Assembly: GCA_028277445.1 (NCBI GenBank)
Contig: JANQGG010000064.1
Location: 3,124-67,123, forward strand
Reading direction: 5' to 3'
Source: Chloroherpetonaceae bacterium
Lineage (GTDB): Bacteria; Bacteroidota; Chlorobiia; Chlorobiales; Chloroherpetonaceae
DNA length: 64,000 bases
Shown here: piece after piece, positions 3,051 through 52,463 of the stretch
Position numbering within the stretch: the first letter of the stretch is position 1
How the letters are laid out: each line of letters begins with the position of its first letter
Notes under the pieces: model-generated
Seen by the model: the letters and a program-made list of their open reading frames with translations, nothing else
What the model was told of the DNA's origin: nothing
Database searches by the model: none
Translations under genes and position numbers: made by a program

Positions 3051-4241
3051 CTAAAAAGTTTTGGCTCGTTCGGCCTGGCTCTTTGATCGTGATACACAAT
3101 CTTCAATGGCCATTCCTCCATAATAATTACCGGTTAGCAAAAGTTTTTGCCCATCAAGAAGTTGATTGACTTTTTTAAGCCACTCATTATGGCCGACTCT
3201 TAACGATGGCACGGTATTTTGGATTTCATAATGATGGATAATTTTATCCTCGGAAATACCTAGCACATCGGTTATGCGCTCGGTTTTTGTTTGCGGACTT
3301 ACGCCGGATTTAAAATGAAATGCAAAACCACGATACGTTGTATCAGGGACAGTATCTCTTGATACCGCTGAAAAGAAACTATCGTTGGGTGAAATAATAG
3401 CGGCAACTGGTTTTAGCGATAACTGGTCTTTCTTAACAACAACACCTACAGAATCAACTGTAGCAGATTTAAGTATGCTAAGATGATCGGCAAGTTCTGT
3501 ATTTATGTTTTGAAGGAGATTTGCCGAAATTGCAGAAGGCGTTGCCAAAGCAAGTATCGGCGCCGTATAAGAATCGCCATTAGCAGTTCTTAATTGGTAT
3601 TCATCGCCGCTTTTTTCGATGCCGGCAACCTCCTGAGAAGTTTGTATGGCAATGTCTTTATTTTTTGCAATGGCTTGGGCTACGGATTGTAATCCGTTTT
3701 TAAAGGTGTAATTTTTCAGAACTTCTTTTCGCTTTGAACGCGATTTAAACATGATATCTGCCGGAAAGTCATCGGTGGGTTGAGAAGGTACGGCATTAAA
3801 GAAGTGGCTGAGGGCATTCGCGTAATTGTTCTTTCCAACAATTTGAGAATAGTATTCACGAACGGTTAAACCGTCTTTCTTGAGCGAAAAAACTTTCGGG
3901 ATTGATACCAACGCCTCAAATAGGTTTAGCACAGAAAAAACCGATTTAAGCTCCCGGTCAACCATTAAGGTGAAGGGGACTTTTGCTCTGGGTATAATTT
4001 CGCTGGAAATACCGCAGGCATCTACAATATCCAGTAGATTTTGATACGAATTATAACAAGTATGCGCGCCTAGTTCCAACCAGAAGCTTGAGCCGTTTTC
4101 GGAATATGGGTGAGATACAAATGAACCGCCAACACTGCTGTTTTTTTCGAGTAGGGTTGTTTTTAATCCGGCCTGAGAGCAATAATGCGCAAGACTCAGT
4201 CCACTAATACCGCCACCTACAATAACAACATCACTTTTCAT
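3051..4241 (-). CDS. FAD-dependent oxidoreductase, protoporphyrinogen oxidase (HemY)-like
   Basis: N-terminal dinucleotide fold DVVIVGGGISGLSLAHY...LLEKNSSVGG. C-terminal GNYYGGMAIEDCVSRS resembles the HemY/amine-oxidase family C-terminus. Shorter (396 aa) than typical HemY. Sits between two bchH paralogs. Confidence 0.6.
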   Translation of the reverse strand: MKSDVVIVGGGISGLSLAHYCSQAGLKTTLLEKNSSVGGSFVSHPYSENGSSFWLELGAHTCYNSYQNLLDIVDACGISSEIIPRAKVPFTLMVDRELKSVFSVLNLFEALVSIPKVFSLKKDGLTVREYYSQIVGKNNYANALSHFFNAVPSQPTDDFPADIMFKSRSKRKEVLKNYTFKNGLQSVAQAIAKNKDIAIQTSQEVAGIEKSGDEYQLRTANGDSYTAPILALATPSAISANLLQNINTELADHLSILKSATVDSVGVVVKKDQLSLKPVAAIISPNDSFFSAVSRDTVPDTTYRGFAFHFKSGVSPQTKTERITDVLGISEDKIIHHYEIQNTVPSLRVGHNEWLKKVNQLLDGQKLLLTGNYYGGMAIEDCVSRSKSQAERAKTF

Positions 4242-7400: not shown

Positions 7401-8265
7401 TGGTAAACCAATCGCGAACAACCACGTGGCCTTCAACACCCATTACAAAAACCGGTAAAACATAAAGCCCGGCATTTTCTAAAGCGTGTATGGTATTATC
7501 TATATATGCTTTTTCCTGCAGGAGGTGTTTTCTGAAGAAAAGCAACCCGATATGAGGCGCGGTCTTCGGATTGTTTTTAGCAGATGTTAAACGCTTTTTT
7601 TGCCATTTGTTATAATGAGCAGCATCTGCAAAATAATCTTCAGCGTCGGGATGGTAGAATCCCATGGTTGGAACTTCTTCAACAGATTTTACTTTAACAT
7701 TGACTTCAAAGTATTCTTTGAGGATTAAGCGGAACATATTGGTGAGGTTCTCGGCTGTCGGATGAAGCCAATACGAATACACCAGCATCCAGTTTTTGAA
7801 GTCTTTTGCCTTTTTTGGGATTAAAGGCAACATGGTGCGCATAATCTTCAGCAGCTTCACATACCCGTAAAGGGCATCTTCATCGCGGCCTTTAACGAGC
7901 AGCTTGGCAACTTTTTTAACGATATCCGGCATCCCACCGCCTTCAGCATTGGGATTGTAGGTTCCGACTTTAGTCATGCCCATAACTTCAGGCATCGACT
8001 CGTAAGAGAAAATGGTTTTAATTTTCGATTTATTTACACACTCCTGAAGCCAGTCGGACTGGTGTTTGAATTGAATGAGCGTTAAAAATAAACAATCCGC
8101 TTTTTCTAGGGCTTTTGCCAAGTCCTGGTTTTGTTGCTCCAAATCCAAATCGGACCATTCTTCAAGTTCAGCCACATCTGATAAGCTTTGTCTGACATCT
8201 TGCCAAACCCTTCTGTTGTATTGATCCATACCCAGTATGGCTACAATTCTTTTCTTGTCGTTCAT
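4441..8265 (-). CDS. Magnesium chelatase H-subunit family protein (BchH/BchS/BchT-type paralog, CobN superfamily)
   Basis: 1274 aa, the size and collinear motifs of BchH/ChlH (MGMHGTVEWMPG, NNPSEANIAKRRGYATMISH). AGGAG upstream of the ATG. Confidence 0.9.
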   Translation of the reverse strand: MNDKKRIVAILGMDQYNRRVWQDVRQSLSDVAELEEWSDLDLEQQNQDLAKALEKADCLFLTLIQFKHQSDWLQECVNKSKIKTIFSYESMPEVMGMTKVGTYNPNAEGGGMPDIVKKVAKLLVKGRDEDALYGYVKLLKIMRTMLPLIPKKAKDFKNWMLVYSYWLHPTAENLTNMFRLILKEYFEVNVKVKSVEEVPTMGFYHPDAEDYFADAAHYNKWQKKRLTSAKNNPKTAPHIGLLFFRKHLLQEKAYIDNTIHALENAGLYVLPVFVMGVEGHVVVRDWFTKEKLDLLINMMGFGLIGGPAGSTTPGTSAEARDEILSALDVPYIVAQPLFIQDMESWKQHGVTPLQSAMLYSMPEMDGAICPLVLGAGHNGRITSVPDRLNRLATLAKGWTNLRRKANSEKKLAFVVYDYPPGLGRKASAALLDVPKSLLEILRKLKSEGYYVGNLPETSEDLYNMLNQATDFQTQYNSSDAICVSKEDFELLTSDNERELINTRWESFPGDIAPAAEDKVYIGGITFGNVYIGVQPRLGVQGDPMRLLFDKENCPHHQYMAFYRWISRKFQADCTIHMGMHGTVEWMPGLQLGLTSECWPDALLGETPHVYLYPVNNPSEANIAKRRGYATMISHAVPPLSRAGLYKELPALKDMINDYRERGLGEAETSNPEIEEAITEKVAQLNLNDDCPRIDGESFADYLSRLYMYLMDLENRLISSEMHVFGNTVPVEEQITTVVETLKLRGNGHSLPSIFLKSLEEGAKYQGYTELAATARQGDQSAMVLREKVDDACKTFVEACIFDRKHPREIFNKLTDQVTISEDMAKHLDDSLHTGREMVRSMKNNTGEMDSLINTLQGQYLPAGPGGDLIRDGLNILPTGRNIHSIDPWRIPSEVANTRGSQIADTIIERHLAESGGEYPETIAQVLWGLDTIKTKGESVAIVIKLIGAKPAYDAQGKISHYELIPLDKLKRPRIDVLMQVSSIFRDNFGNLLDLLDRLVVSAAKADEPHEMNFIKKHVDEAMAEGKSFESATSRIFTQAQGNYGSFVDEMVEDSSWESEEDLDNMFIRRTSFAYGGNRNGAQETDILKGLMGTVDRVVQQVDSAEFGISDIDRYFSSSGSLQLSARMHNKKGTGVKLNYVESFTADVKVDDVDKTLRVEYRSKLLNPKWYESMISQGHSGATEISNRFTYMLGWDAVSKSVDDWVYEKAAETYAFDPKMREKLSKANPEAMKNIVGRMLEASGRGMWQADQDTIDKLQEIYSDLEDKLEGIEVN

Positions 8266-8385: not shown

Positions 8386-9153
8386 TTAGGTTTCGTGATA
8401 GATTTTATGCTTATGCATAGACGAAACTCTACAAATTCGGTTTAAGTTTTTAACGGCCACTTCTAATTTGTTGAATGGAAATGCCAGCATTAACTCATTA
8501 TCGCTAAAAACCATGCCTGTATTGCCGCCGATATCCCCTAAAGTAAAAGCCGGCTTATCGGTTTTATAAACATAACTTGAAACCATTTCGCAGGTTGAAC
8601 CACCCGCTATGCCTGAAATAAACTCACCCGTATCAAAACCATAGGAACGCAGAATTCGTTGTCCTTGGGCCGGTGTGCAAATGATAAAAACCAAATCTGG
8701 AAGTAATTCAGGCATCTTCATTTTTTCCAGGGGACCAATAATTTGCGCTTCAAACTCCCCGTCTTCAAAAGGAAGCGTGGTTTCTAAAGCGCATTTTAAT
8801 CCTTCCATAGTCCCATAAATCTTACCATCCCCAATCATGAATTTTTCGGCAATCTCAATTGGCATGGTACTTCCGAAACCCGCCGCTATTGAACCTCCTC
8901 CGCAAATTTGTTGAGATTTTATGGTGTAAAACGGCTCGGCACCGTTGAACGCATCACCCCACATTGCGCACAATAAGGATTTATCTTCACCCTTTCCGGC
9001 TTGATCGCCAAAGCGTTTAATACCTTTTGGCAGATCCGATAAAGTTTTTACAAACTTAATACCAATGGGTTTTCGCTCAAGTTTTTCAATTTTACACAAT
9101 GTTGATGATAACTCCTCAGGCGACATACTCAACTCAGGTGATAATTTACTCAT
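8386..9153 (-). CDS. DUF169 (COG2043) family protein
   Basis: 255 aa with the pattern I associate with DUF169: PIGIKF near the N-terminus, C..GG..AAGFG, PLEK...PDLVFIICTPAQGQRILRS, and a late GGSTC / GDIGG...DNELMLAFP segment. Confidence 0.65.
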   Translation of the reverse strand: MSKLSPELSMSPEELSSTLCKIEKLERKPIGIKFVKTLSDLPKGIKRFGDQAGKGEDKSLLCAMWGDAFNGAEPFYTIKSQQICGGGSIAAGFGSTMPIEIAEKFMIGDGKIYGTMEGLKCALETTLPFEDGEFEAQIIGPLEKMKMPELLPDLVFIICTPAQGQRILRSYGFDTGEFISGIAGGSTCEMVSSYVYKTDKPAFTLGDIGGNTGMVFSDNELMLAFPFNKLEVAVKNLNRICRVSSMHKHKIYHET

Positions 9154-9244: not shown

Positions 9245-11722
9245 TCAGTAAGCATATTCCAACCCAAAGTGGAAACTACGACCAGGCGAACGATAATGCT
9301 CAAGTTCTTCATATTGAACATTGCCCACGTTTTTTATGGCTGCTGATAAAGTTATCGCATCCATAAAACTGTAATTGGCAGATGCATTCCATACAAAAAA
9401 TCCACCGGGGTACTCATCTCCTTGCGGATTGGCATACATTCTGACGGTTTTGATTTTACTAACATATCTGCCGCTCACCATCAATTTTGCAATATCATCC
9501 AATAAAGTATAACCACCTCTAAAGCTGAATGAGTGTTCTGGACGGTACGATAACCAGTCTTTATCTTCTTCAGGATTCATATTCCCGCCTAACATTGTGG
9601 ATCGTTCTGAAGTAAGATCTTTAGCGTTCATGTAATTATAACCGAAATTAATGAACAATTGATCCATTGGATGAATGTCAACCGATGTTTCAAAACCAAT
9701 GATACGTGCCTCAGCCACATTTTTAAATTGAAAAATTACAGATGAGACATCACTGGCTAAAGCATGGGGATTAATATTTTCAGCTTCGATTAAATCTTTG
9801 TAGAAGTTGTAATATGCAGAGATGTCTAACGAAAGGTATTTTGAGAAACTCTTAAACATACCCACTTCCACGCTGGTCATGCGTTCAGCTTTGATCTCCG
9901 TATTTGGAATGCCTCTGAAAAATCCGGCTTCGGTAACAAAGCGCTCTGCAAGCGTAGGCGCTCTCATACTTTGGCCAAACGATGCACGGAAAGAAGTTTC
10001 TGGATTAAGCAGATAGGTTATAGCAGCCCTTGGGCTAAACTGCCATAATGTTTGGTATTTAATACTTCCAGTTTTAGAAGAATAAATGGGTTGAAATGTT
10101 ATAGGATCTACGCCAATTGCATCCAAGTAATTCGTATAAGTAACTTCTGATCGATCAATATGATCCAAATCAAAACGAGCGCCGAAGCTTAAGCGGATTT
10201 GTTCATTGAGTTTAAAATCGTCTTGAGCAAATATACCAAAAGCTTGTGCGGTATTGTCGTAATACATGGTTGATTTTACATCATCGTATTGTACATCAAA
10301 GCCTGTGGTTAAACGATGCCCTTTGGAGAACCAGTTAAACTGCATACCAACTCCATATCGGCGTGCATCAGAATCATTATATGTGGAAGGATCATCCGGA
10401 TCATAAACCCCACGTTTACCGGCTGAGTATTGTTGATAATTCCCAATCACGTTATCCTGACCATCATATAAATTAAATGCCTCATCAAATTCAGGATAAT
10501 ATTTTATTACAAATGAAGATCGGTTGAAAAATGCACGGCTTTCCAAACTCGAGGTATTGCTTATTGTCCATACATGCTTCAAGCCAACCATTTGCATGGA
10601 ATTGTCTTTGATATCATCATATTGGTAGTTACCGGGAACAGGGTCTGCAAGAGCATTGTATTCGTTACGCCATGGGTATGGGATACCTCCTGTCACATAG
10701 GTTAAAATTCCCGATAACTGTAAGAATTGAGTTCCGGATAATGAATAGCGAGCTTTTACCTTAATATCATTACTTTCCATTTGTGCGGATTGTCGGTACC
10801 CATCATCTTCAGAATGAGAGTAAAAAACATTATAATTGAGATTGCCAATGACGTTACTGTGAGATATGTTGGCACTGTAAAAATAAGGTGTTTTATCGCC
10901 GGGATACACTTCAGTATTTACTTCATCACTTGGCGGGGTATCGTAAAAACCATTTGAAAACTTTGCTTTAAATGTAAATTCATTAGGCAAAGCAGCGACA
11001 GCTTGAATAACTCCGCCCATAGCTCCAGCGCCATATAATGCTGAAGATGAGCCTTTTACCACTTCAATTCTCTCAACAGCGTCCATTGATACCATAGACC
11101 AGTAAATAGAACCGGCATCAGGCGCATTTAACGGGTAGCCGTCATACAATAACAAAACGCGTGTTCCTAATCCACCACCCGAGAATGTGTTGGATCCTCT
11201 AATTTGGACTGAACTTGTACCATATCCGCCAGATCTTACCAGATCAACTCCGGGTACACTTTCCAAAACCTGATCTAATTGTTTGATAGGTTCAGCGTCA
11301 ATGGTTTTCATGGATAAAATACTCGTGGTAATCGGAACTTCTGCTCTTTTCTGTTCATACCTGGAAGCCGATATTACAACTTCTGAGCCCATGATACTAC
11401 CCTGGATCAAAGAAACATTAATAGCTTGAGAGTTATTCGGATCAACTTTAACAGTTTTTGTGACGTTTTTGTAGCCAATAGCAGAGATACGAACCTTATG
11501 TTTACCAACCGGAACATTTTTTATGATAAACTCTCCATCTATGCCTGAAACTGCTCCAAGGGTCGTTTCTTGTATGATAATCGTTGCCCCTGGAAGAGAC
11601 TCGTTCGTTTTAGCATCTTTAACAATGCCTTTAATTACGGATTTCTCTTTATCGGATGATCCTAAGAGAGTTGAGGGAATGCTTAATATCATTAAAACCA
11701 ATATGGTGTAATATCTTTTCAT
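9245..11722 (-). CDS. TonB-dependent outer-membrane receptor with N-terminal carboxypeptidase-regulatory-like domain
   Basis: Signal peptide MKRYYTILVLMILSIPS. IKGIVKDAKTNESLPGATIII (CarboxypepD_reg-like), then plug and barrel motifs (IEVVKGSSSALYGAGAMGGVI). Aromatic C-terminus ...FGLEYAY. Start moved to the ATG at 11722 (GGAG upstream) rather than the TTG at 11755. Confidence 0.9.
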   Translation of the reverse strand: MKRYYTILVLMILSIPSTLLGSSDKEKSVIKGIVKDAKTNESLPGATIIIQETTLGAVSGIDGEFIIKNVPVGKHKVRISAIGYKNVTKTVKVDPNNSQAINVSLIQGSIMGSEVVISASRYEQKRAEVPITTSILSMKTIDAEPIKQLDQVLESVPGVDLVRSGGYGTSSVQIRGSNTFSGGGLGTRVLLLYDGYPLNAPDAGSIYWSMVSMDAVERIEVVKGSSSALYGAGAMGGVIQAVAALPNEFTFKAKFSNGFYDTPPSDEVNTEVYPGDKTPYFYSANISHSNVIGNLNYNVFYSHSEDDGYRQSAQMESNDIKVKARYSLSGTQFLQLSGILTYVTGGIPYPWRNEYNALADPVPGNYQYDDIKDNSMQMVGLKHVWTISNTSSLESRAFFNRSSFVIKYYPEFDEAFNLYDGQDNVIGNYQQYSAGKRGVYDPDDPSTYNDSDARRYGVGMQFNWFSKGHRLTTGFDVQYDDVKSTMYYDNTAQAFGIFAQDDFKLNEQIRLSFGARFDLDHIDRSEVTYTNYLDAIGVDPITFQPIYSSKTGSIKYQTLWQFSPRAAITYLLNPETSFRASFGQSMRAPTLAERFVTEAGFFRGIPNTEIKAERMTSVEVGMFKSFSKYLSLDISAYYNFYKDLIEAENINPHALASDVSSVIFQFKNVAEARIIGFETSVDIHPMDQLFINFGYNYMNAKDLTSERSTMLGGNMNPEEDKDWLSYRPEHSFSFRGGYTLLDDIAKLMVSGRYVSKIKTVRMYANPQGDEYPGGFFVWNASANYSFMDAITLSAAIKNVGNVQYEELEHYRSPGRSFHFGLEYAY

Positions 11723-11801
11723 ATCCTGCTCCACAATTTTTCTGGCTGTTACCAAATTATTTTTGGGGCAGAAATGCTCTGCCCCAAAGTGCGATTAAAA
11801 C

Positions 11802-16844: not shown

Positions 16845-16916
16845 AATTTCAATATTTAATTAACTAACATAGTCATGAATACCCACATAATTAGTTTGCA
16901 TAAACACAACATTTAC

Positions 16917-18761
16917 ATGATGAATAAAATTCGATTCTTTTTTTATGTTCTGATTTTTACATTGCCGCTGTCAACCAATGCATTTGGGGATACGCTCTCG
17001 TATAGATCGCAGGATATTATCATAACCGCAAACAGAGTGGCATTGGGTTTGTCCGAAGTTGGGCGAAGCGTAGAGGTGATTACCAGCGAAGAATTAAATC
17101 AGCTTCCGGTGCAACATGTTCAGGATATCCTAAAATATGTTGAAGGCGTTCAGCTTAATCGACGAGGCCCATTAGGCGCACAAGCCGATGTAAGCATCCG
17201 AGGTGGTTCGTTCGAACAAACCTTAATTATGATCGACGGAAACAAAGTTTCGGATCCTCAAACCGGCCATCATAACCTGGATATTCCATTAACCATCAAT
17301 GATATTGAGCAGATAGAAATTTTAAGGGGCGTCGGTTCCAGGGTTTATGGCCCGAATGCATTTGGCGGTATTATAAATGTGATCACCAAAAGAACATCGA
17401 AACAAGCTGTTACCGGAACAATAGCCGGCGGTGAGCATGGTTATTTTTCCGGTGGCGTTTCTATGGCAGCGCCGGCATTAGGAGCGGATCACAGGTTGTC
17501 GTTATCGCGCCAGTCTTCGGATGGTTATCGCGCCAACACCGATTTTCAGAACACCGTCTTTTCATATTCCATACATAATGCTTTTGAGAAAGGCAACTAT
17601 TCACTCCAATTTGGTTATCTGGATAAAGAATTTGGCGCTAATCAATATTACTCTGCATCATTTCCTGACCAGTGGGAAAAAATTCTAACAACATATCTTT
17701 CGGCTGGAGGCTCGTATTTCCTGGATCAAAAATCCATATCGCATCGGTTTTCTGCCAAATTGCATTGGCGCAATAAAGACGATGAGTTTTTGTTGAAACG
17801 CCAGGACCCTGACTTTTACAGAAACACGCATACGACCAATGTTTGGGGGACTGAGTTAAGCTGGGATGCAACCTATGGAAACCATAAAACCGCGTTGGTT
17901 TTGGATTTAGGCTTGGAAGATATTGAAAGCAGCAATTTAGGAAATCGGCTCAGGCGGCACGCCGGATTCATTGCCGAACAGCATATTCGTTTATTTGATC
18001 GATTAAACGTTGTGCCTGGCCTATCGCTCTACATGTATTCGGATTGGGAGCCTGAAGTTCAACCGGCAATAGATGTATTGCTGCAAGCTGCGGAAAAGTT
18101 ACAGGTTTTCGGTTCTGTTGGCAGAGCATTTCGAGTGCCAACATACACGGAACTTTATTATCAAGATAGGGTTAATCAGGCAAACGAAGATTTAAAACCG
18201 GAAGAAGCATGGGCTTACGAAATTGGGGGTCGCTATCACGAAAAAAACTGGCAAGTATCGACAAGCGTGTTCTATAGAGATGGGCGCAATTTGATTGATT
18301 GGGTGAAATTGACTGATAGTGATATGTGGCAGGCCCAAAATGTTTCCAATGTCCATACTTTTGGGCTTGAAGCGGATGTTTCCATGTCTACCCGAATGTT
18401 ATTTAAAAAATGGATATCCAGCATTGGACTTTCTTATGCATTTATTAATTCGGGGCGAGACCTTAAAGGCTTACAATCCCGATATGTGTTTCAATATATG
18501 AAACACCAAATACACCTGAAGGTGGCGCAAGAGTGGTTTGGAAGACTTAATCAGCTTTGGGCAATTAGATACCAGGAGCCAAAGGGTAATGATAGCTTTA
18601 TGGTATTGGATACCAAACTATCGTATCCCGTTCAGATCGGGCAAATCCAAACAACAATTTTTGCTGAAATCAGCAATGTTTTTAATACAAGTTACATTGA
18701 AGTCAGCCCGATACCTATGCCTGGCCGATGGATCATTCTTGGCATAAAACCATCTTTTTAG
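16917..18761 (+). CDS. TonB-dependent receptor (BtuB/CirA-size, ~610 aa)
   Basis: Signal peptide MMNKIRFFFYVLIFTLPLSTNAFG. TonB box DIIITANR. Plug motifs IEILRGVGSRVYGPNAFGGIINVIT. C-terminal F. Confidence 0.85.
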   Translation: MMNKIRFFFYVLIFTLPLSTNAFGDTLSYRSQDIIITANRVALGLSEVGRSVEVITSEELNQLPVQHVQDILKYVEGVQLNRRGPLGAQADVSIRGGSFEQTLIMIDGNKVSDPQTGHHNLDIPLTINDIEQIEILRGVGSRVYGPNAFGGIINVITKRTSKQAVTGTIAGGEHGYFSGGVSMAAPALGADHRLSLSRQSSDGYRANTDFQNTVFSYSIHNAFEKGNYSLQFGYLDKEFGANQYYSASFPDQWEKILTTYLSAGGSYFLDQKSISHRFSAKLHWRNKDDEFLLKRQDPDFYRNTHTTNVWGTELSWDATYGNHKTALVLDLGLEDIESSNLGNRLRRHAGFIAEQHIRLFDRLNVVPGLSLYMYSDWEPEVQPAIDVLLQAAEKLQVFGSVGRAFRVPTYTELYYQDRVNQANEDLKPEEAWAYEIGGRYHEKNWQVSTSVFYRDGRNLIDWVKLTDSDMWQAQNVSNVHTFGLEADVSMSTRMLFKKWISSIGLSYAFINSGRDLKGLQSRYVFQYMKHQIHLKVAQEWFGRLNQLWAIRYQEPKGNDSFMVLDTKLSYPVQIGQIQTTIFAEISNVFNTSYIEVSPIPMPGRWIILGIKPSF

Positions 18762-29636: not shown

Positions 29637-31196
29637 TCAAACTTTCGGGGTTAAGGTTGCAATCGGAACCACCATTTCATCCAGTGAAATGCCCCCATGT
29701 TGGAAAGAATCGCGGTATTGATTGACGAACTTATGATAGTTTGTCGGATAAACAAAGTAGTAATCTTCTTTGGCAATGATGTAATGAATATTCAATGCAT
29801 GCTTGGGTAAGCGATAACGCTCAGGATTGCGGATCATAACGGCTTGCTTGGTCTCGCATTGAAGGTTTTTGCCGAACTTAAATCTTAGATTAGTTGAAGC
29901 TTCACGATCGCCGATGACTTTTGATGGGTGCATGCAACGAATACTGCCGTGATCGGTGGTAACAACAATTGTAACATCCTGTTTGGCGAGCGCTTTGAGC
30001 ATTTTAAAGAAATACGAATGCTCAAACCAGGTTTTGGTGAGCGAGCGAAAGGCATTTTCATCGGGTGAAAGCTCACGAATAACCTGAGAATCGAATCGGC
30101 TGTGCGCTAAAATATCCACGAAATTTATAACCACCGCATTAAGCTGATGATTAAGGTAAGACAGCACAGAATTTTCAAAATTTTTGCTTTCTTCGGTTGT
30201 TGTGAGCTTGCTGTATTTTATGCCATTTACCGAAAGACGCCGGCGTTTGAAAAAGTCCTTAAAGAATTCATCTTCATATTTGTTTTTGCTGTGCTCGCTT
30301 TTCTGACTTTCTGCCCATAATTTCGGATGGCGTTTTTCAATATCATCGGGAAAAAGTCCGCTGAAAATGGTGTTTCTGGCATAAGAAGTCGCCGTAGGCA
30401 AAATGCTGAAATATTGCTCATTATGAATTTGATAACAAGACTGAAGCATAGTTGCCATAATCAACCATTGATCGTAACGAAGGCAATCTACAACAAAGAA
30501 AAACACTTTTTTGCCATCCTTAAGATGCGGTACAACATGTTTATCCAGGATATCAACCGAGAGCGTTGGGCGCTCCTCAAATTCACTTTCGCACCAGGTT
30601 TCGTAATGCCGTTCAACATATTTGGAGAATTCGGCGTTGCAATCCCGTTTTTGGCCGGTCAGTGTTTCTCTTAAATCCAGGTTAGGGTGCTCATCCAATT
30701 CCAATTCCCATTTGGAAAGACGCGCATGGAGATCCATCCAGTCTTCAGGCTCCATAGGCATCATTAACTGTTGGGTGATTTTATTGAATTCGGAAATATA
30801 ATCTTTGGCGGTGCTATCGTCTTTCAGAGATTCGGAATCCAGGAGCTTTTTGCATGCCAGGACGATTTGGTTCGGATTAACCGGTTTGATCAAATAATCG
30901 GAAATTTTTTTCCCAATGGCCTGATCCATCAACGATTCCTCTTCATTTTTCGTGATCATGATAACTGGCGTAGAGGGTGAAGTGGCTTTGATTTCACTCA
31001 AGGCGCCAAGTCCGCCAATGCCCGGCATCTGTTCATCTAAAAAAATGATGTCGTAACTCTCTTTTTGTGATAATGCGATGGCATCTTCGCCATTGCTGGC
31101 TGTGGTGACATCAAAACCTTTATCGGTAAGAAAAATAATATGTGATTTGAGCATATCGATTTCATCATCGGCCCAAAGAATGCGGTATCGTTTCAT
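29637..31196 (-). CDS. Response regulator with C-terminal PglZ (alkaline-phosphatase-like) domain, PorX-like
   Basis: REC domain (ILWADDE...IFLDEQMPG...KP) followed by ~380 aa with VVDCLRYDQW and DHGS-type metal-site motifs. Length (519 aa) and architecture match PorX of P. gingivalis. Confidence 0.75.
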   Translation of the reverse strand: MKRYRILWADDEIDMLKSHIIFLTDKGFDVTTASNGEDAIALSQKESYDIIFLDEQMPGIGGLGALSEIKATSPSTPVIMITKNEEESLMDQAIGKKISDYLIKPVNPNQIVLACKKLLDSESLKDDSTAKDYISEFNKITQQLMMPMEPEDWMDLHARLSKWELELDEHPNLDLRETLTGQKRDCNAEFSKYVERHYETWCESEFEERPTLSVDILDKHVVPHLKDGKKVFFFVVDCLRYDQWLIMATMLQSCYQIHNEQYFSILPTATSYARNTIFSGLFPDDIEKRHPKLWAESQKSEHSKNKYEDEFFKDFFKRRRLSVNGIKYSKLTTTEESKNFENSVLSYLNHQLNAVVINFVDILAHSRFDSQVIRELSPDENAFRSLTKTWFEHSYFFKMLKALAKQDVTIVVTTDHGSIRCMHPSKVIGDREASTNLRFKFGKNLQCETKQAVMIRNPERYRLPKHALNIHYIIAKEDYYFVYPTNYHKFVNQYRDSFQHGGISLDEMVVPIATLTPKV

Positions 31197-39374: not shown

Positions 39375-39447
39375 GCCCTTGTAGCTCAGAGGATAGAGCA
39401 GCAGTTTCCTAAACTGCGTGCCGGCAGTTCGAGTCTGCCCAAGGGCA
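39375..39447 (+). tRNA. tRNA-Arg (anticodon CCT)
   Basis: Hand-folded cloverleaf: acceptor GCCCTTG/CAAGGGC; D arm GCTC-AGAGGATA-GAGC; anticodon arm GCAGT-TTCCTAA-ACTGC; T arm GGCAG-TTCGAGT-CTGCC; discriminator A. No encoded CCA. Confidence 0.85.
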
Positions 39448-39476
39448 CGATGGTATTTTTAACTATCATTTTCATT

Positions 39477-45026: not shown

Positions 45027-46520
45027 ATGAAGTACGATTGCATTGTCATAGGTTCAGGGATTGGTGGTTTATCATCTGCGGCAATTTTGGCTCATCAGGG
45101 ATGGCGGGTGTTGGTGTTGGAAGCAAACTATTTGCCCGGAGGGTGCGCTTCATCCTATCCTGTAAAAAAGAACCATCAAACCTTCTGGCTGGAAACAGGA
45201 GCTACAACATTGGTTGGCAAAGATTTCAATCAACCCTTAGATCTTCTCCAAAAACAGTTAAATATTACATTGCCCGGCGTTGAAACCAGTCCTGCCATGC
45301 AAGTGCATATGAACGGATTAAATGTAACCCGATTTAAAGATCGGGATGCCTGGGTGGAAGAGTGTTACCGTAAATTTTTTAAGAACGCCAACATACCCAA
45401 ACGAAATGTTACTGATTTTTGGGAAGAGGTTTTTACGATAGCTGATTTTGTATGGGATGTGTCGGGAAAAAACATGGCTTTTCCTCCATTGAACCTGCGC
45501 GATGTTTTTAATCTCATCAGCAATAATAAAGTTTCGGACGTGCCTAAACTTCGGTTTTTATTCCAATCCGCGAAAAACCGTCTGGACGCTTATGGATTAA
45601 GCCATAATGCTGAATTTATACGATTTTGTAATGAGCAATTGCGAATCACAGCTCAGTCCGATGTTGCCAATACCTCGTTTCTTTATGCTGCGCCGTGTTT
45701 GTCTTACGCCAACATTACAAATTATTATGTTTATGGCGGGATGATTGAGCTTTCAAGGGCGCTGATTGCAGCGCTTGAAGCAAATCAAGGTAAAATTTTG
45801 TATCGAAAAAAAGTTCGATCCATTGACAAGGTGGGAGAAGTCTTTAATGTGGAAACGGATGAACCTGAAGCCTATAAGTCCAGAACGGTCATCAGTAACG
45901 CGACCATGTGGGATATGGCTGAAATCACAAACGACCGGGCACGCAGTTTTTTTAAAATGCGCTCGGAAAAATACGATTTTGCCTATGCCGCATTTACGAT
46001 GGGCCTCGTATTAAAACGTGTGATTAATCCACAACCACCCTATCATCATCAGATGATTTTAACCAGACCAATTGTTCATTGCCTCTCGCATTCATTTTTT
46101 GTCTCTTTTTCAAAACCGGACGATACCTATCGGCATCCGGAGGGATATCAAATCCTTTCAATTTCAACGCATGTAGATCCGGAATTTTGGTTTGGTTTGA
46201 GCAAAAAGTATGATGAGTGTAAAGAACAAACGGCAAATGAAATTTTAGGTCATCTTAAAAACATATTCCCTGATTTTAATGAAAACGATGTTGTGGTTAT
46301 TCATACCTCAACGCCACGATCATGGCAAAACTGGGTGCATCGCAAACATGGGCGTGTTGGCGGACTGCCCAATATTTTTTCAAAAAATCCCTTACGCTCT
46401 CCTCAAACCAGAACCCCGTTTGAAGGCCTTTATTTGGTTGGGGATACGGTTTATCCTGGACAAGGTATTGCAGGTGTAACCTTATCGGGTATGGCGGCAG
46501 CCTATCATCTTCTGAAATAA
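45027..46520 (+). CDS. Phytoene-desaturase (CrtI/CrtD/CrtH) family FAD-dependent oxidoreductase
   Basis: YDCIVIGSGIGGLSSAAILA...VLEANYLPGGCA at the N-terminus; C-terminal GLYLVGDTVYPGQGIAGVTLSG. Confidence 0.75.
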   Translation: MKYDCIVIGSGIGGLSSAAILAHQGWRVLVLEANYLPGGCASSYPVKKNHQTFWLETGATTLVGKDFNQPLDLLQKQLNITLPGVETSPAMQVHMNGLNVTRFKDRDAWVEECYRKFFKNANIPKRNVTDFWEEVFTIADFVWDVSGKNMAFPPLNLRDVFNLISNNKVSDVPKLRFLFQSAKNRLDAYGLSHNAEFIRFCNEQLRITAQSDVANTSFLYAAPCLSYANITNYYVYGGMIELSRALIAALEANQGKILYRKKVRSIDKVGEVFNVETDEPEAYKSRTVISNATMWDMAEITNDRARSFFKMRSEKYDFAYAAFTMGLVLKRVINPQPPYHHQMILTRPIVHCLSHSFFVSFSKPDDTYRHPEGYQILSISTHVDPEFWFGLSKKYDECKEQTANEILGHLKNIFPDFNENDVVVIHTSTPRSWQNWVHRKHGRVGGLPNIFSKNPLRSPQTRTPFEGLYLVGDTVYPGQGIAGVTLSGMAAAYHLLK

Positions 46521-46741: not shown

Positions 46742-47788
46742 ATGAATCATTACTTTTCTACACGAGAGTTGTCGAAGCTATGTGGCGTGGGTGAAACCAC
46801 AGTGAAACGGTGGTCTAATATGGGTTTAATCAAACACCACAAAACTGTCGGACGTCACCGAAAATTCAAGCTGGAAGATGTTCTGGATTTTATTAGCAAG
46901 AATCATATCCAGATACCCAATGAACAAATAGAGCAGCTAAAGCTTGAAAAACAATCCTCGGATAATCTTGATTTAGGCGCTGAAATTATTCTGGTAAAAG
47001 GTGATACGGATGCATTGGCGCAAAGATTATACACCAGTTTATGTGCCAAAAATAAGCAAGAAGTTGAGGTTCTGTTAATCCGAGCATTTGAGCAGAAACT
47101 TTCATTTGCTACGATCTTTGATAAAATGATTGCTCCGGCAATGCATAAGGTTGGCAACTTATGGGAAAATCAGAAGATATGTTCGGCAGAAGAACATGTC
47201 ATCTCAAATATTATGGTTGAAGCCATAATGCGATTGAAAACCCGGTATGAATCCCTTCAGAGTGATATTAGCCTGGGTGTTGATGACGATTATGGAATGG
47301 ATGGAGAACCTACTTTGTATCGCCATCGAAAAAGACATGATCAAACGCATCGCATTAAAACACCGATTAATGATTTAGAGCAAGATAAAGCTTCAAAGCC
47401 AAAGGTGGTTGTATGCTCATGCCCTGAAATTGAGCATCACGAAATTGCATTACAAGGCGTTGCCTTAGTATGCGCCAGTCATGGATTTGAAGTCTTATAT
47501 GTTGGGCGGGCTGTGCCTTTTAAGGATTTATTGAAATTTATTGAAGTTTCTGAGCCAGGGCTTGTTTGCATGTTGTTTACATCTGCTAAAATTGATGAGA
47601 TGCTATATAAAAGGTATGAGCAGTTTCGAAAAAAAATGGCAAGAGCAAAAATCAAGCTAATTATCGGCGGTCAATTTTTAGGAGAAAAAAAGTCTTTTCC
47701 GATTAAATCTGATTTCAGGGCTTTCAATTGTGTGTCGCTAGAGCAATATTTGAAGCAAAATTTTCAAGTGAGTAGTTCAATCTTGTGA
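46742..47788 (+). CDS. CarH/LitR-like transcriptional regulator: MerR/excisionase-type HTH plus B12-binding_2 helical bundle plus cobalamin-binding Rossmann domain
   Basis: HTH STRELSKLCGVGETTVKRW. Exact W-x9-E-H (LWENQKICSAEEH). KVVVCSCPEIEHHEIALQG...LIIGGQF matches the E/DxHxxG cobalamin domain with A in place of G. Confidence 0.75.
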   Translation: MNHYFSTRELSKLCGVGETTVKRWSNMGLIKHHKTVGRHRKFKLEDVLDFISKNHIQIPNEQIEQLKLEKQSSDNLDLGAEIILVKGDTDALAQRLYTSLCAKNKQEVEVLLIRAFEQKLSFATIFDKMIAPAMHKVGNLWENQKICSAEEHVISNIMVEAIMRLKTRYESLQSDISLGVDDDYGMDGEPTLYRHRKRHDQTHRIKTPINDLEQDKASKPKVVVCSCPEIEHHEIALQGVALVCASHGFEVLYVGRAVPFKDLLKFIEVSEPGLVCMLFTSAKIDEMLYKRYEQFRKKMARAKIKLIIGGQFLGEKKSFPIKSDFRAFNCVSLEQYLKQNFQVSSSIL

Positions 47789-47960: not shown

Positions 47961-48019
47961 AAGTTTTACATTTTTGTCGTATTAAAATTTGTTAATAAGG
48001 AGAATAAAAGGAGAAAACT

Positions 48020-50269
48020 ATGGCAGACCAAGAGAAACCTACCGGAGCTCAACCGGGTGGTGGAAGCGGTGCACCGAAAAGACCTCCAATGCAAGCTGCT
48101 AAATTGCAGGCTGCACAAAAAACAGGCACACCAAAAGCTGCTGCAAAACCTGCTGCTGCAAGGCCAGCAACTGCTAAAAAAGCTCCAGCTAAAGATGTTC
48201 CGCCTACAAAGGAAGCCGATGTATCGGTGATGAAACGCTTTTTATTGAAGCGTTCCGAAACACGTACCACCAAATGGTTCCAAGTTTTTGATGCCGATAA
48301 ACTTGATGACGAACAAGTAGTGGGCGCCCATCTTGCGCTTTTAGGCACGTTGGGTATTGTAATGGGTATCTATTACATCTCGGGTATTCAAGTTTTTCCA
48401 TGGGGACAAATTGGATTCCATGATAATTGGTTCTATTTGACCATTAAGCCGAGATTGGTTTCATTAGGTATCGATACCTACAGCACGGCGGCTGAAGATT
48501 TAATGAAAGCAGGTGAAAACTTGCTTTGGTGGGCAGGAATTCACTTTTTAAGCGGATCATTCCTCATTTTTGGGGGTTGGCGTCACTGGACAAAAAACCT
48601 GACTAATCCATTTACCGGAAGAACAGGTAATTTCAGAGACTTCCGCATGTTCAAATACTTCACAAAACGAAGCGCTAAAAACTACGCTGAAGCATTAGGC
48701 GCTCATACCATTTACCAGTCTTTCCTATTCCTGGCTTGGGGATTTGTGATGTGGTTTGCTTTGGATATTGTTCCTATGCCGGATTTTCAAACCATTAATT
48801 CAGAAGCCTTTATGTCTTTTGTATGGTTTGTAATCTTTTTTGCCGTTGGTTATTACTGGTGGGAAAATCCTCCCGGAGCTGCCAGCCATTTGAATGATGA
48901 TTTAAAAGCGATTTTCTCCGTTCATCTTACAGCAATGGGTTATGTAAATATTGCGCTTGGCATTTTTGCATTCATTGCGTTCAAACAAGAGCAGTTCTTC
49001 TATCAAGACCTTAATAATTTGGTTTATTACATCTACGGTGAGCCATTTAACCGGGTAAGTTTTGATTTTGTTATGGAAGGTGGTAAGATCATATCCGGAA
49101 CAAAAGAATTTGCCGAATATGCGCCTTATGCAATCCTTCCTAAGAACGGTGAATCCTTTGGTATGGCTCAAGTTGTCATTAACCTTGTTGCATTTAACCA
49201 CATTATATGCGGTGTTTTGTATGTGTTTGCCGGTGTTTTCCATGGCGGTCAGTATTTGCTGAAAATTCAAATGTCAGGCTTATACTCTCAGATCAAATCA
49301 TTCTGGGTTGCCTATGGAAGAGATCAGGAACGCCAGGTTCGCATTTTAGGTACAATTATGGTGCTTTGTTTTACAACCATGATCTCAGTTTATGCGGTTG
49401 TGTGTTGGAACTCAATATGTGAGCTGAACATATTGGGCACAAACATTACCATGTCATTTTATTGGCTGAAACCAATTCCACCGTTTAGTTTCTTGTTTGA
49501 AGATCCTAGCGTTAATGATTGGGCAGCCGTTCATGAATTGGTTGCGGGTTCATTGTTCTCATTAATTGCGTTAGTTCGTATCGCATTCTTTGCTCATACT
49601 TCTCCGCTTTGGGAAGATTTGGGCTTGAAGAAAAATTCGTTCTCATTCCCATGTTTAGGACCGGTTTATGGCGGTACATGCGGCGTGTCTATCCAAGATC
49701 AGTTATGGTTTGCCATGCTTTGGGGCGTTAAAGGGCTCTCTGTAGTAGAATGGTATATTGATGGCGGATGGGTAGCTTCAATGAACTACGGTATGGCCGT
49801 AGCCGATTGTAACTCATGGGATGCCATTGCAGGTTTGAGCAATCACTATACTGGCGGTATCTTTTATTACATGTGGGTTGAAACCCAATCAATTTGGGCA
49901 AGCTCTCACTTAACCGTTGTACTTTTAATTGGTCACTTGGTATGGTTTGTAAGTTTTGCCGTTTGGTTTAAAGATCGTGGTTCTCGTTTGGAAGGTGCCG
50001 ATATCCAAACCCGTACTATTCGTTGGTTGGGCAAAAAATTCCTAAATCGCGATGTCCAATTCCGATTCCCGGTATTGAATCTTTCGGATTCTAAACTTGC
50101 TGGAACAGTCATGTACTTTAGCGGCACGTTTATGTTGGTTTGGCTGTATATTGTCAATGGTTTTTATATGACCAATGAACCTCGACCTGCACCAGTGGGT
50201 CAAGCAGCTCAGACGACAAGTGATTTTCTTACGAGTGTCGTGGATTATTTATTGAAATTTATAGCGTAA
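48020..50269 (+). CDS. pscA: Type-I photosynthetic reaction-centre core protein PscA (P840-type)
   Basis: Double AGGAG RBS. 749 aa. Long stretches match green-sulfur PscA as I recall it (HDNWFYLTIKPR, FGGWRHWT, FNHIICGVLYVFAGV). FX loop FPCLGPVYGGTCG at about 49646-49684. Pro/Ala/Lys-rich N-terminus. Confidence 0.95.
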   Translation: MADQEKPTGAQPGGGSGAPKRPPMQAAKLQAAQKTGTPKAAAKPAAARPATAKKAPAKDVPPTKEADVSVMKRFLLKRSETRTTKWFQVFDADKLDDEQVVGAHLALLGTLGIVMGIYYISGIQVFPWGQIGFHDNWFYLTIKPRLVSLGIDTYSTAAEDLMKAGENLLWWAGIHFLSGSFLIFGGWRHWTKNLTNPFTGRTGNFRDFRMFKYFTKRSAKNYAEALGAHTIYQSFLFLAWGFVMWFALDIVPMPDFQTINSEAFMSFVWFVIFFAVGYYWWENPPGAASHLNDDLKAIFSVHLTAMGYVNIALGIFAFIAFKQEQFFYQDLNNLVYYIYGEPFNRVSFDFVMEGGKIISGTKEFAEYAPYAILPKNGESFGMAQVVINLVAFNHIICGVLYVFAGVFHGGQYLLKIQMSGLYSQIKSFWVAYGRDQERQVRILGTIMVLCFTTMISVYAVVCWNSICELNILGTNITMSFYWLKPIPPFSFLFEDPSVNDWAAVHELVAGSLFSLIALVRIAFFAHTSPLWEDLGLKKNSFSFPCLGPVYGGTCGVSIQDQLWFAMLWGVKGLSVVEWYIDGGWVASMNYGMAVADCNSWDAIAGLSNHYTGGIFYYMWVETQSIWASSHLTVVLLIGHLVWFVSFAVWFKDRGSRLEGADIQTRTIRWLGKKFLNRDVQFRFPVLNLSDSKLAGTVMYFSGTFMLVWLYIVNGFYMTNEPRPAPVGQAAQTTSDFLTSVVDYLLKFIA

Positions 50270-50299
50270 GCCATATGGTTTATAGGCTATGTTACAGTT

Positions 50300-50328
50300 G
50301 GGGTATTCGCTCTTGAATGCCCCATTTT
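50300..50328 (+). terminator. Intercistronic hairpin with short U-tract after pscA (possible partial terminator or processing site)
   Basis: GGGGTATTC-gctctt-GAATGCCCC (one G-U pair) followed by ATTTTCA. Confidence 0.35.
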
Positions 50329-50526
50329 CAGTTGCTGTTTGTTGTTAATGTTATGTGAGTTCTTTAAAAAATTGATTATCTCGCCGTCGCCGTAGTTTGT
50401 AATAAATGGTGCCTATGCGCTGCCATGTAGAAGTATGTTTGGTATCCATGCCAAAAAGCTAAAGGAACGAAAACACAAGTTTATATATTTTACTAATAAA
50501 TAAACATAACTTTAACAGGAGGATTT

Positions 50527-50865
50527 ATGGCAGCAACAGCAACGAAGAAAAAAGTTAAGAAGCGCCAAAAAAATAGATATGATATTATAGAAAATCTATG
50601 TGTTGGTTGCGGTTTGTGCTTGGATCAATGTCCGCCAAAAGTTAATTCCATAGGTTGGAAAATTTATGGGGATTGGCAAGAAGGTGGATTCAGATGTTAT
50701 ATAGATCAGAATGTGTGTATTTCTTGTCAATTGTGTTTTGATACCGATGTTTGTCCTTCTGGCGCATTGATTGAAATTAGACCTGAAGGGCAAATTCTGG
50801 ATTTCAGACACACACCAAGCAAACGAATCGAAATGTACGATCAACCGTTTTTTGAAAGAGCCTAG
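50527..50865 (+). CDS. pscB: Reaction-centre FA/FB iron-sulfur protein PscB, short form (112 aa)
   Basis: AGGAGG RBS. CVGCGLCLDQCP and CISCQLCFDTDVCP cluster motifs. IIENLCVGCGLCLD..CPPKVN and GGFRCYIDQ resemble green-sulfur PscB. Confidence 0.9.
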   Translation: MAATATKKKVKKRQKNRYDIIENLCVGCGLCLDQCPPKVNSIGWKIYGDWQEGGFRCYIDQNVCISCQLCFDTDVCPSGALIEIRPEGQILDFRHTPSKRIEMYDQPFFERA

Positions 50866-50889
50866 CGCTTTTTAGCTTTTGATAAAAAA

Positions 50890-50921
50890 GCATTGTTGAC
50901 TATCAACAATGCTTTTTTTTT
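50890..50921 (+). terminator. Rho-independent terminator of pscAB
   Basis: GCATTGTTGA-cta-TCAACAATGC followed by nine T. Confidence 0.85.
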
Positions 50922-50947: not shown

Positions 50948-51739
50948 ATGAGTAAACCCACAGAATTTATTTCCCAAAAGGATGGTGTTTTAACCCAAGA
51001 CAATCCAATGTTAGCTAAAGGTAAAACCTTAGTTATTATTCCTACCTTTAATGAGTCTGAAAACATTAAAGAAATCATCGTATTGGTTTTCAAGTTAAAT
51101 ATTCCGGGTTTGGACATCCTTGTTGTAGATGATAATTCCCCGGATGCAACAGCTGATGTTGTTGAATCTTTAATGAGCGATTTCTCAAATCTTTTTTTAA
51201 AAAAACGACCCGGAAAGTTGGGTTTGGGCACAGCCTACGTTGTGGGATTTAAGTATGCAATTGAAAATCAGTATGATTTTATTGTTGAAATGGATGCCGA
51301 TTTATCGCATGATCCCCAGATGCTTCCCCAATTTTTGAAAGAAATTCAAACGTCGGATTTGGTGATTGGTTCGCGCTATATAAATGAAGTTTCCAATGTG
51401 GTAAATTGGCCGCTTCGTCGATTAATGCTATCGAAAGGCGCAAGTGTATATACCCAGATAATTACTCGGATGCCCATCAAAGACCCGACATCAGGGTTTA
51501 AATGCTTTAGAAGAAAGGTGTTGGAAGCAATTAATTTAGATAATATTCATTCCGGGGGCTATTCCTTTCAGATCGAAATGAATTTTAAGGCATGGAATAA
51601 AGGATTCAAATTAAAAGAAATGCCTATTATTTTTGTCGATAGGACAGTAGGCAAATCCAAGATGTCGAAAAAAATCATTTGGGAAGCAATATGGATGGTC
51701 TGGGGACTAAAATTCAAACAACTCTTTAAGCAGCTATAA
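50948..51739 (+). CDS. GT2 polyprenol-phosphate mannosyl/glycosyltransferase (DPM1/Ppm1-like)
   Basis: IIPTFNESENI, VVDDNSPD, EMDADLSH. Confidence 0.8.
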   Translation: MSKPTEFISQKDGVLTQDNPMLAKGKTLVIIPTFNESENIKEIIVLVFKLNIPGLDILVVDDNSPDATADVVESLMSDFSNLFLKKRPGKLGLGTAYVVGFKYAIENQYDFIVEMDADLSHDPQMLPQFLKEIQTSDLVIGSRYINEVSNVVNWPLRRLMLSKGASVYTQIITRMPIKDPTSGFKCFRRKVLEAINLDNIHSGGYSFQIEMNFKAWNKGFKLKEMPIIFVDRTVGKSKMSKKIIWEAIWMVWGLKFKQLFKQL

Positions 51740-51821: not shown

Positions 51822-52463
51822 ATGACAAACAGTAAAACCATAATGACGTCGGAAAAACAAAAATTAATGACCCCTTCAGACGTTATAGAAGAGTTAAAAC
51901 AAGGGAATCAGCGATATGTGCAAAACACGTGCTTAAATCGTGATTTTCCAACTGACATTAAACAAACTTCAAACGAACAGTATCCGAAAGCCGTAATCCT
52001 TTCATGTATAGACAGCCGTGTTCCGGTAGAATACATTTTTGATCAGGGCATTGGCGATGTGTTCGTTTCACGAGTTGCTGGAAATGTATCCAATAGTGAT
52101 ATTCTCGGAAGCATGGAGTATGCGTGCAAATTTGCCGGGGCAAAGCTGATTGTGGTATTGGGACACGAAAATTGTGGGGCAGTAAAAGCCGCAATTGATA
52201 AAGTTGATGTGGGCAATATTACCGGCATGCTACATAAGATTCAACCTGCGATTCAGAAATCTAAAAGTTATGACGGTGATCAAACCACCCAAAATCATGA
52301 CTATGTGGGTTATGTGACTGAACAAAATGTGAGGTATACCATTGATGAAATCCGGTCAAATAGCCAGATCATTAATGAATTGGAATCCAATGGAGAAATC
52401 ATGATTGTCGGAGCCATATACAGTTTAAGTACGGGTCGGGTATCGTTTTTCGACAAACGATAA
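51822..52463 (+). CDS. Beta-class carbonic anhydrase
   Basis: LSCIDSRV and GHENCGAV zinc-ligand motifs. Confidence 0.85.
   Translation: MTNSKTIMTSEKQKLMTPSDVIEELKQGNQRYVQNTCLNRDFPTDIKQTSNEQYPKAVILSCIDSRVPVEYIFDQGIGDVFVSRVAGNVSNSDILGSMEYACKFAGAKLIVVLGHENCGAVKAAIDKVDVGNITGMLHKIQPAIQKSKSYDGDQTTQNHDYVGYVTEQNVRYTIDEIRSNSQIINELESNGEIMIVGAIYSLSTGRVSFFDKR

Follow-up and report, generated by a model that had tools for sequence, protein, structure and literature searches.

The subject of this analysis is the pscA-pscB locus in a 64-kb stretch of DNA from a bacterium of the family Chloroherpetonaceae (hereafter the window), which codes for the core subunit (PscA) and the FA/FB iron-sulfur subunit (PscB) of a type-I photosynthetic reaction center. 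This is very probably an ordinary reaction-center locus of a green sulfur bacterium of the Chloroherpeton clade, an uncultured and probably marine species that is already represented by a public metagenome-assembled genome (MAG). An earlier sequence-only reading had recognized both genes, and had taken the short PscB and a Pro/Ala/Lys (PAK)-rich tract at the N-terminus of PscA as signs of a deep or atypical lineage. The recognition of the genes stands; the lineage does not, for PscA is nested in the Chloroherpeton clade, Chloroherpeton thalassium has the same layout and a public MAG is 97% identical. Read as the discovery of a new phototroph lineage, the locus therefore has no significance. 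Its interest lies instead in a contrast between families: only 20-24 residues precede the first cluster motif of PscB at the Chloroherpetonaceae loci with an adjacent pscB as against 127-213 in Chlorobiaceae, which amounts to a natural deletion of the N-arm and C-arm by which PscB clamps the Fenna-Matthews-Olson (FMO) protein in the 2023 structure from Chlorobaculum tepidum.

Both open reading frames (ORFs) are confirmed as reaction-center genes (Table 1), and nothing contradicts their identification. PscA matches the solved PscA chain of C. tepidum, a member of the Chlorobiaceae, with 1198 bits (6m32_A; residues 38-749 of the query aligned to 12-731 of the chain) and scores above the family cutoff with the Pfam PsaA_PsaB model. 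Its identity to database PscA proteins ranges from 66 to 95%, the two closest being 95% and 94% identical, and the 94% cluster includes ACF13876.1, the PscA of Chloroherpeton thalassium ATCC 35110; direct comparison with the latter protein (ACF13876.1 / WP_012499960.1) gives 90% identity across 691 residues free of gaps. The FX loop FPCLGPVYGGTCG, which begins at residue 543 and conforms to the two-Cys pattern FPCxGPxxGGTC, is identical in C. thalassium. From the gap-free 90% identity to the C. thalassium protein, and from homology to the solved structure, we infer eleven transmembrane helices, binding of bacteriochlorophyll a and chlorophyll a, and P840 photochemistry. Codon-level estimates of nonsynonymous (dN) and synonymous (dS) substitution, computed between the window and L082, a contig of a close relative, yield a dN/dS of ~0.02-0.07 for PscA, and the ribosome-binding stretch AAGGAG(A)ATAAAAGGAGAA of pscA is kept both in L082 and in the C. 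thalassium locus (L081).

PscB matches the Pfam 4Fe-4S dicluster families, and its residues 8-109 align with residues 123-223 of C. tepidum PscB (6m32_B, E = 7e-45). As the sequence-only reading had noted, both 4Fe-4S motifs are present and the first begins ~24 residues from the start: Cys 25/28/31/35 make up a CxxCxxCxxxCP motif and Cys 64/67/70/76 a CxxCxxCxxxxxCP motif, all eight being invariant in the alignment. A further cysteine, Cys57, is a non-ligand, because the thermophilic relatives have Tyr at that site. The gene lies immediately downstream of pscA on the same strand, at a distance of 257 nt in the window, and has this position in 75 related loci too. It cannot be extended upstream, again as first claimed: an in-frame TAA (50497-50499) stands ten codons before the ATG with no alternative start in between. 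It appears to be functional, as judged from strong purifying selection (dN 0.036, dS 1.06 against L082, for a dN/dS of ~0.03), the invariant ligand cysteines and a strong ribosome-binding site. No remnant of Pro/Ala/Lys-coding sequence was detected by eye in the 257-nt AT-rich spacer that separates the two genes, and the N-arm motif LGRxGxRxESALP was found in neither PscA nor PscB of the window. The protein ends in ...MYDQPFFERA, with no C. tepidum-type tail (...RFLHRFHREVR). In terms of sequence, the window PscB is essentially the ordered core of the Chlorobiaceae protein (C. tepidum ~123-223) preceded by a short basic leader, and lacks both disordered PAK stretches as well as the FMO-binding N-arm (C. 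tepidum 60-80).

The locus was compared with 81 related pscA/pscB loci, and the alignment and placement of PscA that the sequence-only reading had proposed as a check grouped it with C. thalassium, apart from Chlorobiaceae and from Thermochlorobacter/GBChlB. The PscA core is 99.4% identical to that of assembly GCA_028282215.1, 95% to that of L082 and 91% to that of C. thalassium ATCC 35110; in a neighbor-joining tree of the PscA core, computed without bootstrap or outgroup, these three and the window form one clade, sister to the Thermochlorobacter/GBChlB clade (74-77% identical to the window), with Chlorobiaceae (73-75%) separate. Nucleotide comparison gives 96.8% identity to JANQIK010000007.1 (assembly GCA_028282215.1) along 20.3 kb of the window and 97% to a scaffold from a TARA metagenome; C. 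thalassium and L082 align with the window only patchily, at ~72-76%. The description of the type species of the Chloroherpeton clade dates from 1984, and its genome is public and finished. In that genome (CP001100.1) a helix-turn-helix (HTH)/B12-binding regulator (347 aa), pscA (751 aa), pscB (111 aa), a family-2 glycosyltransferase (GT2) and fusA follow one another in the same order as in the window. Independent assemblies of the close relatives L082 and L083 match the window over a longer, 20-kb order (window and relatives were compared over 20-22 kb) that runs from a sigma-54 regulator through diaminopimelate (DAP) epimerase, a tetratricopeptide repeat (TPR) protein, amine oxidase, the regulator, pscA and pscB to GT2, carbonic anhydrase, fusA, DUF1848, a second TPR protein, eno, purD, a response regulator and lon. 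C. thalassium further shares with the window a PscA identity of 90-91%, a PscB identity of 82%, the long PscA tail and a short PscB ending in ...PFFER. It is nevertheless a different species: the regulators are only 59% and the GT2 proteins 67% identical, the pscA-pscB spacer is 351 nt as opposed to 257 nt in the window, and the window has a beta-carbonic anhydrase gene downstream of GT2 and a carotenoid-desaturase-like gene upstream of the regulator, neither of which is found at the C. thalassium locus. The sequence-only reading had allowed that its lineage would fall if this architecture were standard in a described genus with an essentially identical genome. The architecture is indeed standard in a described genus, but the near-identical genome is that of an uncultured public MAG, and the DNA of the type strain is only ~72-76% identical where it can be aligned.

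The short PscB is the norm of Chloroherpetonaceae, including the described type species, rather than a truncation. In a stop-to-stop reading of pscA-linked loci, PscB spans 107-112 aa in Chloroherpetonaceae (112 aa in L082 and L083, as in the window) and 219-305 aa in Chlorobiaceae (median 239, 68 loci), which bears out the earlier remark that the latter proteins are about twice as long, and no short PscB was encountered among the Chlorobiaceae loci of this survey. The leader before the first Cys motif, measured in the window, L081, L006 and L008, is 24 residues in the window and C. thalassium and 20 in GBChlB and Thermochlorobacter; in 69 Chlorobiaceae loci the corresponding stretch has a median of 147 residues. 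The other end of the protein differs as well, with all Chloroherpetonaceae ending in ...PFF(E/A)R(A) and Chlorobiaceae in ...FDLRFLHRFHRExR. Certain Chlorobiaceae-type database entries (P0040, P0042, P0044, P0046 and P0048) measure 110-194 aa and have a Val start or a frameshifted N-terminus. Those of 110 aa were considered as true short forms and rejected, being Val-start or frameshifted calls that retain the Chlorobiaceae C-terminus. Evidently, the repetitive GC-rich DNA that codes for PAK stretches is often mis-assembled or mis-called in metagenomes, and could skew length surveys. Full-text literature searches turned up no open paper stating that the PscB of Chloroherpetonaceae is short. 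Genomics papers from the Bryant laboratory reportedly discuss these genes.

The PAK-rich tract on PscA is real: residues 7-66 are 62% Pro+Ala+Lys, whereas the runner-up 60-residue stretch among the 47 ORFs that reach 150 aa has 35% and the mean is 17.6%. It is not there "instead" of an extension on PscB, as first proposed, since the N-terminus of PscA has a common plan throughout Chlorobiales, in which MA(D/E)Q.(K/N/T)P.G is followed by a Pro/Ala/Lys(/Gly)-rich tail and then by M(K/R)RF(L/I)...TKW. Most Chlorobiaceae have 58 residues before the TKW, 33-43% of them Pro+Ala+Lys, in a tail that starts MAEQVKPAGVKPKGTVPPPKGNAPAPK... (for example, MAEQVKPAGVKPKGTVPPPKGNAPAPKANGAPGG...); Chloroherpetonaceae have 81-85 residues, 48-51% of them Pro+Ala+Lys. 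Their tail is thus ~25 residues longer, and the added part holds a conserved island, QAAKLQAA.KK. In the comparison with L082 the tail has a dN of 0.06 and a dS of 0.80, and is accordingly under selective constraint. Across the two families there is a reciprocal trend, with the short PscB going together with the longer PscA tail.

A new, deep or atypical type-I reaction-center lineage outside the described green sulfur bacteria would account for the PscB being short, the PscA tail long and the neighbors Bacteroidota-like, and in a PscA scan of species-representative genomes (80 loci, the best at 74-76%) indeed no match exceeded 76% identity. That scan brought up neither C. thalassium nor the MAG with 97% identity, which may be masked or absent there; both exist in another collection, so that the gap in the scan is no sign of novelty. 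The earlier observation that the neighborhood is not Chlorobiaceae-like does hold, a CarboxypepD_reg TonB receptor, a PorX-like regulator, mutL, eno and lon all being present. However, the PorX-like regulator and TonB receptors fit Chloroherpeton, because it is a gliding organism (PMC3362086) with SprA and Por_Secre_tail genes at its own pscA locus, and type IX secretion/gliding genes are expected in it (PMC3362086). With PscA falling within the clade of C. thalassium ATCC 35110 (91% core identity), the synteny the same and a public MAG 97% identical, we regard a separate lineage as very improbable. It is harder still to credit that the short PscB is an artifact, be it a wrong start, a frameshift, an assembly collapse of PAK-coding repeats or a decaying pseudogene. 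Such cases do occur, as the 110-aa entries discussed above illustrate; here, the in-frame stop at ten codons, the lack of any other start, the AT-rich spacer, the retention of every ligand cysteine and a dN/dS of ~0.03 all speak against it, and PscB has the same length in an isolate whose genome is finished as well as in five or more independent assemblies. Several other points do weigh against our account of an ordinary Chloroherpeton-clade locus. Just 20-22 kb were compared, so that its assignment to the genus, rather than only to the family, relies on a single protein tree together with local synteny, and the DNA of the type strain matches only in patches at the level given above. An AlphaFold2 model of PscB built from an 11-sequence alignment has a mean predicted local distance difference test (pLDDT) score of 47.6, too low for use, and the binding of clusters, the docking of FMO and the reduction of ferredoxin are deduced from homology to the C. 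tepidum and Chloracidobacterium thermophilum complexes. Finally, our transcription units are motif-based: the hairpin that follows pscA has a T-run of only 4 T in the window, and such a hairpin is present in Chlorobiaceae too.

By analogy with those complexes, two copies of PscA would form the membrane core, with the FX cluster held jointly by their FPCLGPVYGGTCG loops, and PscB would dock on the cytoplasmic face, carry both terminal clusters and hand electrons to ferredoxin. FA would be bound by Cys25/28/31 and Cys76 and FB by Cys64/67/70 and Cys35, in keeping with the ligand assignment known for the green sulfur bacterial (GsbRC) and Chloracidobacterium (CabRC) reaction centers (PMC9751088). 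Two PscB lysines have been proposed for ferredoxin docking in C. tepidum (PMC10968294), of which Lys149 corresponds to Gln33 in the window and Lys153 is kept as Lys37. The FMO-GsbRC complex of C. tepidum (PDB 6M32, 7Z6Q, 7UEA, 8GWA) resembles the system of the window in a PscA that is homologous end to end with the same type of FX loop, in a PscB core (123-223) with both cluster motifs, and in the position of pscB downstream of pscA and followed by GT2 and fusA. However, its PscB, of 230-231 aa, has two disordered PAK stretches around an N-arm, as well as a C-arm (PMC9945994), with no counterpart to this extension in the window; in Chlorobiaceae, moreover, the PscA tail is ~25 residues shorter, the pscA-pscB spacer measures 79-103 nt and no CarH-like gene lies upstream. 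Only residues 139-228 and the N-arm (60-80) of C. tepidum PscB are ordered; according to PMC9945994, this arm lies between two intrinsically disordered stretches, and the first FMO trimer is clamped by it together with the C-arm. Chloracidobacterium thermophilum likewise has a two-cluster FA/FB protein (PscB of CabRC, PDB 7VZG), whose 76-residue modeled core matches residues 18-82 of the window PscB (E = 2e-17), but which is much more distant; the full protein has 179 aa and hence extra sequence beyond the core (PMC10968294), and the partner subunit in that reaction center is PscZ, not PscD (PMC9751088).

Given a PscB devoid of the N-arm and with a different C-terminus, FMO in Chloroherpetonaceae would have to be attached via other contacts, such as PscD, PscA or possibly the longer PscA tail. 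A stronger version, in which two lengthened PscA tails or PscD alone hold FMO in a more symmetric or looser complex, is a speculation that we would not favor, and the same grade attaches to the separate idea that the CarH-like regulator discussed below places pscA under direct green-light/B12 control. Neither an altered FMO attachment nor light/B12 control of pscA was found in the literature searched. C. thalassium is well suited to questions concerning the clamp and the disordered PAK stretches, because it has the natural deletion of the FMO-clamping arms.

The spacer between pscA and pscB also differs between the families, at 153-351 nt in Chloroherpetonaceae and 79-103 nt in Chlorobiaceae. 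In the window it holds a hairpin 30 nt downstream of the pscA stop (-19.1 kcal/mol, z = -3.1), and hairpins with different stem sequences occupy the same position in C. thalassium (L081), L082, L006 and L008 (including GBChlB and Thermochlorobacter); the T-run behind them is 5-8 T long in L081, L006 and L008 and shorter in L082. The spacers of Chlorobiaceae also bear a GC hairpin, mostly without a T-run. Closer to pscB, ~40 nt before its ATG, lies a ~25-nt element, GGAACRAAMAMAAGWGTNTWTAT, that is conserved in all six Chloroherpetonaceae loci aligned and may be a pscB promoter or an element of its 5' untranslated region (UTR). As a candidate for a general photosynthesis promoter motif the element was discarded, having only one match in the window. 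An Rfam scan of the pscA-pscB locus gave no matches. A further hairpin follows pscB, in which an A-run precedes GCATTGTTGA-CTA-TCAACAATGC and a 9-T run; it was not listed by the pattern scan. GT2 is found downstream of pscB in 72 loci (tblastn), and both GT2 and fusA are common to the two families. In five loci from Chloroherpetonaceae/Thermochlorobacteriaceae MAGs (L001-L005), pscB, GT2 and fusA are absent from the available downstream flank of pscA (~6 kb in L002-L005), and the pscA-pscB linkage is broken in this subclade. Taken together, the hairpin, the long spacer and the conserved element suggest that pscB is partly transcribed by itself; that is, it is probably at least partly independently transcribed rather than part of a tight operon, and the two genes seem less tightly coupled in Chloroherpetonaceae.

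The competing view, in line with the title of the sequence-only reading, is that pscA and pscB constitute a single, obligatorily co-transcribed operon, with the hairpin merely stabilizing or processing the mRNA. It draws on their adjacency on the same strand, on the GC hairpin within the much tighter spacer of Chlorobiaceae and on the mere 4 T behind the hairpin of the window. We nonetheless rate it as the less probable arrangement, though a serious one, given that Chloroherpetonaceae have a spacer 2-4 times longer, that the hairpins of L081, L006 and L008 do have 5-8 T behind them, that a conserved element stands ~40 nt before pscB and that pscB falls outside the available downstream flank of pscA in L001-L005. 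The reciprocal lengths of the two proteins might, for their part, be taken as compensation, whereby the tethering role of the PscB extension, as an FMO clamp or a spacer, moved to the lengthened PscA tail, of which each reaction center has two. At every Chloroherpetonaceae locus examined the short PscB is indeed paired with a PscA tail longer by ~25 residues; the added segment bears the conserved QAAKLQAA.KK, the tail is under purifying selection by the values given above, and in C. tepidum the PscA N-terminus adjoins PscB and FB, with Lys45, Arg47 and Arg48 cited there (PMC10968294). Such a relocation is nevertheless unneeded, because the Chlorobiaceae PscA tail is already Pro/Ala/Lys-rich, leaving only ~25 extra PscA residues to be explained. 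These are far fewer than the 120-190 missing from PscB, they have no similarity to the N-arm motif, and homology cannot trace low-complexity sequence in any case. We accordingly hold compensation to be unlikely.

The gene immediately upstream of pscA codes for a 348-aa regulator related to the CarH family, and an ortholog lies directly 5' of pscA in all 12 Chloroherpetonaceae loci counted (L001-L006, L008 and L081-L085) and in none of the Chlorobiaceae loci. Its best match in the PDB is CtMerR (8jbs_A, E = 9e-24), an adenosylcobalamin (AdoCbl)-binding regulator whose tetramer was shown to become monomeric under green light (PMC11796333). It shares with the CtMerR/CarH family (PDB 8JBS, 5C8D) the three-domain layout and the GxxW, EH, ligand His and GxxxP signatures (PMC11796333); all of these, with the His being the lower ligand, are invariant in 13 regulator orthologs. 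On the other hand, the Gly of GxxH is replaced, a variable linker of ~60 residues connects the helical bundle to the Rossmann domain, the similarity to CarH itself is only ~1e-4, and the NCBIfam CarH score is 41 bits against a cutoff of 400. Among 43 database homologs (E <= 6e-89), which carry generic labels ("excisionase family", "B12-binding domain-containing" and the like), all organism-named ones are from Chloroherpetonaceae save one; this exception comes from a 4.2-kb contig assigned by binning to Rhizobacter, on which a partial PscA is also found.

This conserved coupling suggests B12- and light-dependent control of pscA by the regulator, and a probable B12 photoreceptor beside pscA hints at light control of reaction-center synthesis. 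The Chloroherpetonaceae branch includes aerobic photoheterotrophs. No convincing operator was found in the 231-nt regulator-pscA spacer of the window, the alignment of which across genera is too diverged. Tandem GCAGTA/GTAGTA-like repeats occur at 5792-5825 of L005 (period ~8, Tandem Repeats Finder (TRF) score 33) and in the regulator-pscA spacers of L001-L004 and L008; these repeats of the thermophilic clade are operator-like but weak, with nothing comparable in the window spacer. A gene for a 497-aa protein of the amine-oxidase/phytoene-desaturase family (45027-46520, plus strand) lies immediately 5' of the regulator, and is also found near it in L082, L083, L002 and L006, and not in C. thalassium. 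Carotenoid genes are the classical targets of CarH-type regulators, and for this reason the regulator could act on the desaturase-family gene, instead of or besides pscA.

Table 1. Features of the reaction-center locus, in window coordinates
Feature	Coordinates	Strand	Basis
CarH/LitR-like regulator	46742..47788	+	HTH_17/MerR, B12-binding_2 and B12-binding Pfam domains
pscA ribosome-binding site, GGAG	48010..48013	+	6 nt 5' of the ATG; read from sequence
pscA, core subunit of homodimeric type-I (P840) reaction center, 749 aa	48020..50269	+	Pfam, PDB, tree
PscA cytoplasmic N-terminal tail, residues 1-83	48020..48268	+	composition, alignment
FX-binding loop FPCLGPVYGGTCG, PscA residues 543-555	49646..49684	+	motif search
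GC-rich hairpin followed by TTTT, terminator-like	50299..50324	+	pattern scan, folding
Conserved element GGAACGAAAACACAAGTTTATAT	50464..50486	+	alignment of six Chloroherpetonaceae loci
pscB ribosome-binding site, AGGAGG	50517..50522	+	read from sequence
pscB, FA/FB iron-sulfur subunit, short Chloroherpetonaceae form, 112 aa	50527..50865	+	Pfam, PDB, alignment
First cluster motif CVGCGLCLDQCP, PscB residues 25-36	50599..50634	+	cysteines invariant in alignment
Second cluster motif CISCQLCFDTDVCP, PscB residues 64-77	50716..50757	+	cysteines invariant in alignment
Hairpin after pscB, intrinsic-terminator-like	50884..50921	+	read from sequence
Family-2 glycosyltransferase (GT2)	50948..51739	+	downstream neighbor of pscB, conserved in both Chlorobiales families

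Elsewhere in the window, no rRNA genes were found, and pscC, pscD, fmoA and csm had no Pfam match among the scanned ORFs of at least 150 aa (pscB being the only smaller one scanned). A tRNA-Arg(CCT) gene (39375-39448, plus strand) lies between mutL and a sigma-54 response regulator, and the beta-carbonic anhydrase gene (51822-52463, plus strand) is placed between GT2 and fusA, as in L082, L083 and L085, and not in C. thalassium. The PorX-like response regulator, which combines a receiver with a PglZ domain (29637-31196, minus strand), and the TonB-dependent receptors, one with a CarboxypepD_reg domain (9245-11755, minus strand) and the other at 16875-18761 (plus strand), are consistent with gliding and type IX secretion in Chloroherpeton. 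A second photosynthesis-related gene codes for a 1274-aa CobN/Mg-chelatase H-subunit homolog of the BchH type (4441-8265, minus strand), and is flanked by a DUF169 gene (8386-9153) and a flavin amine-oxidase-type gene (3051-4241).

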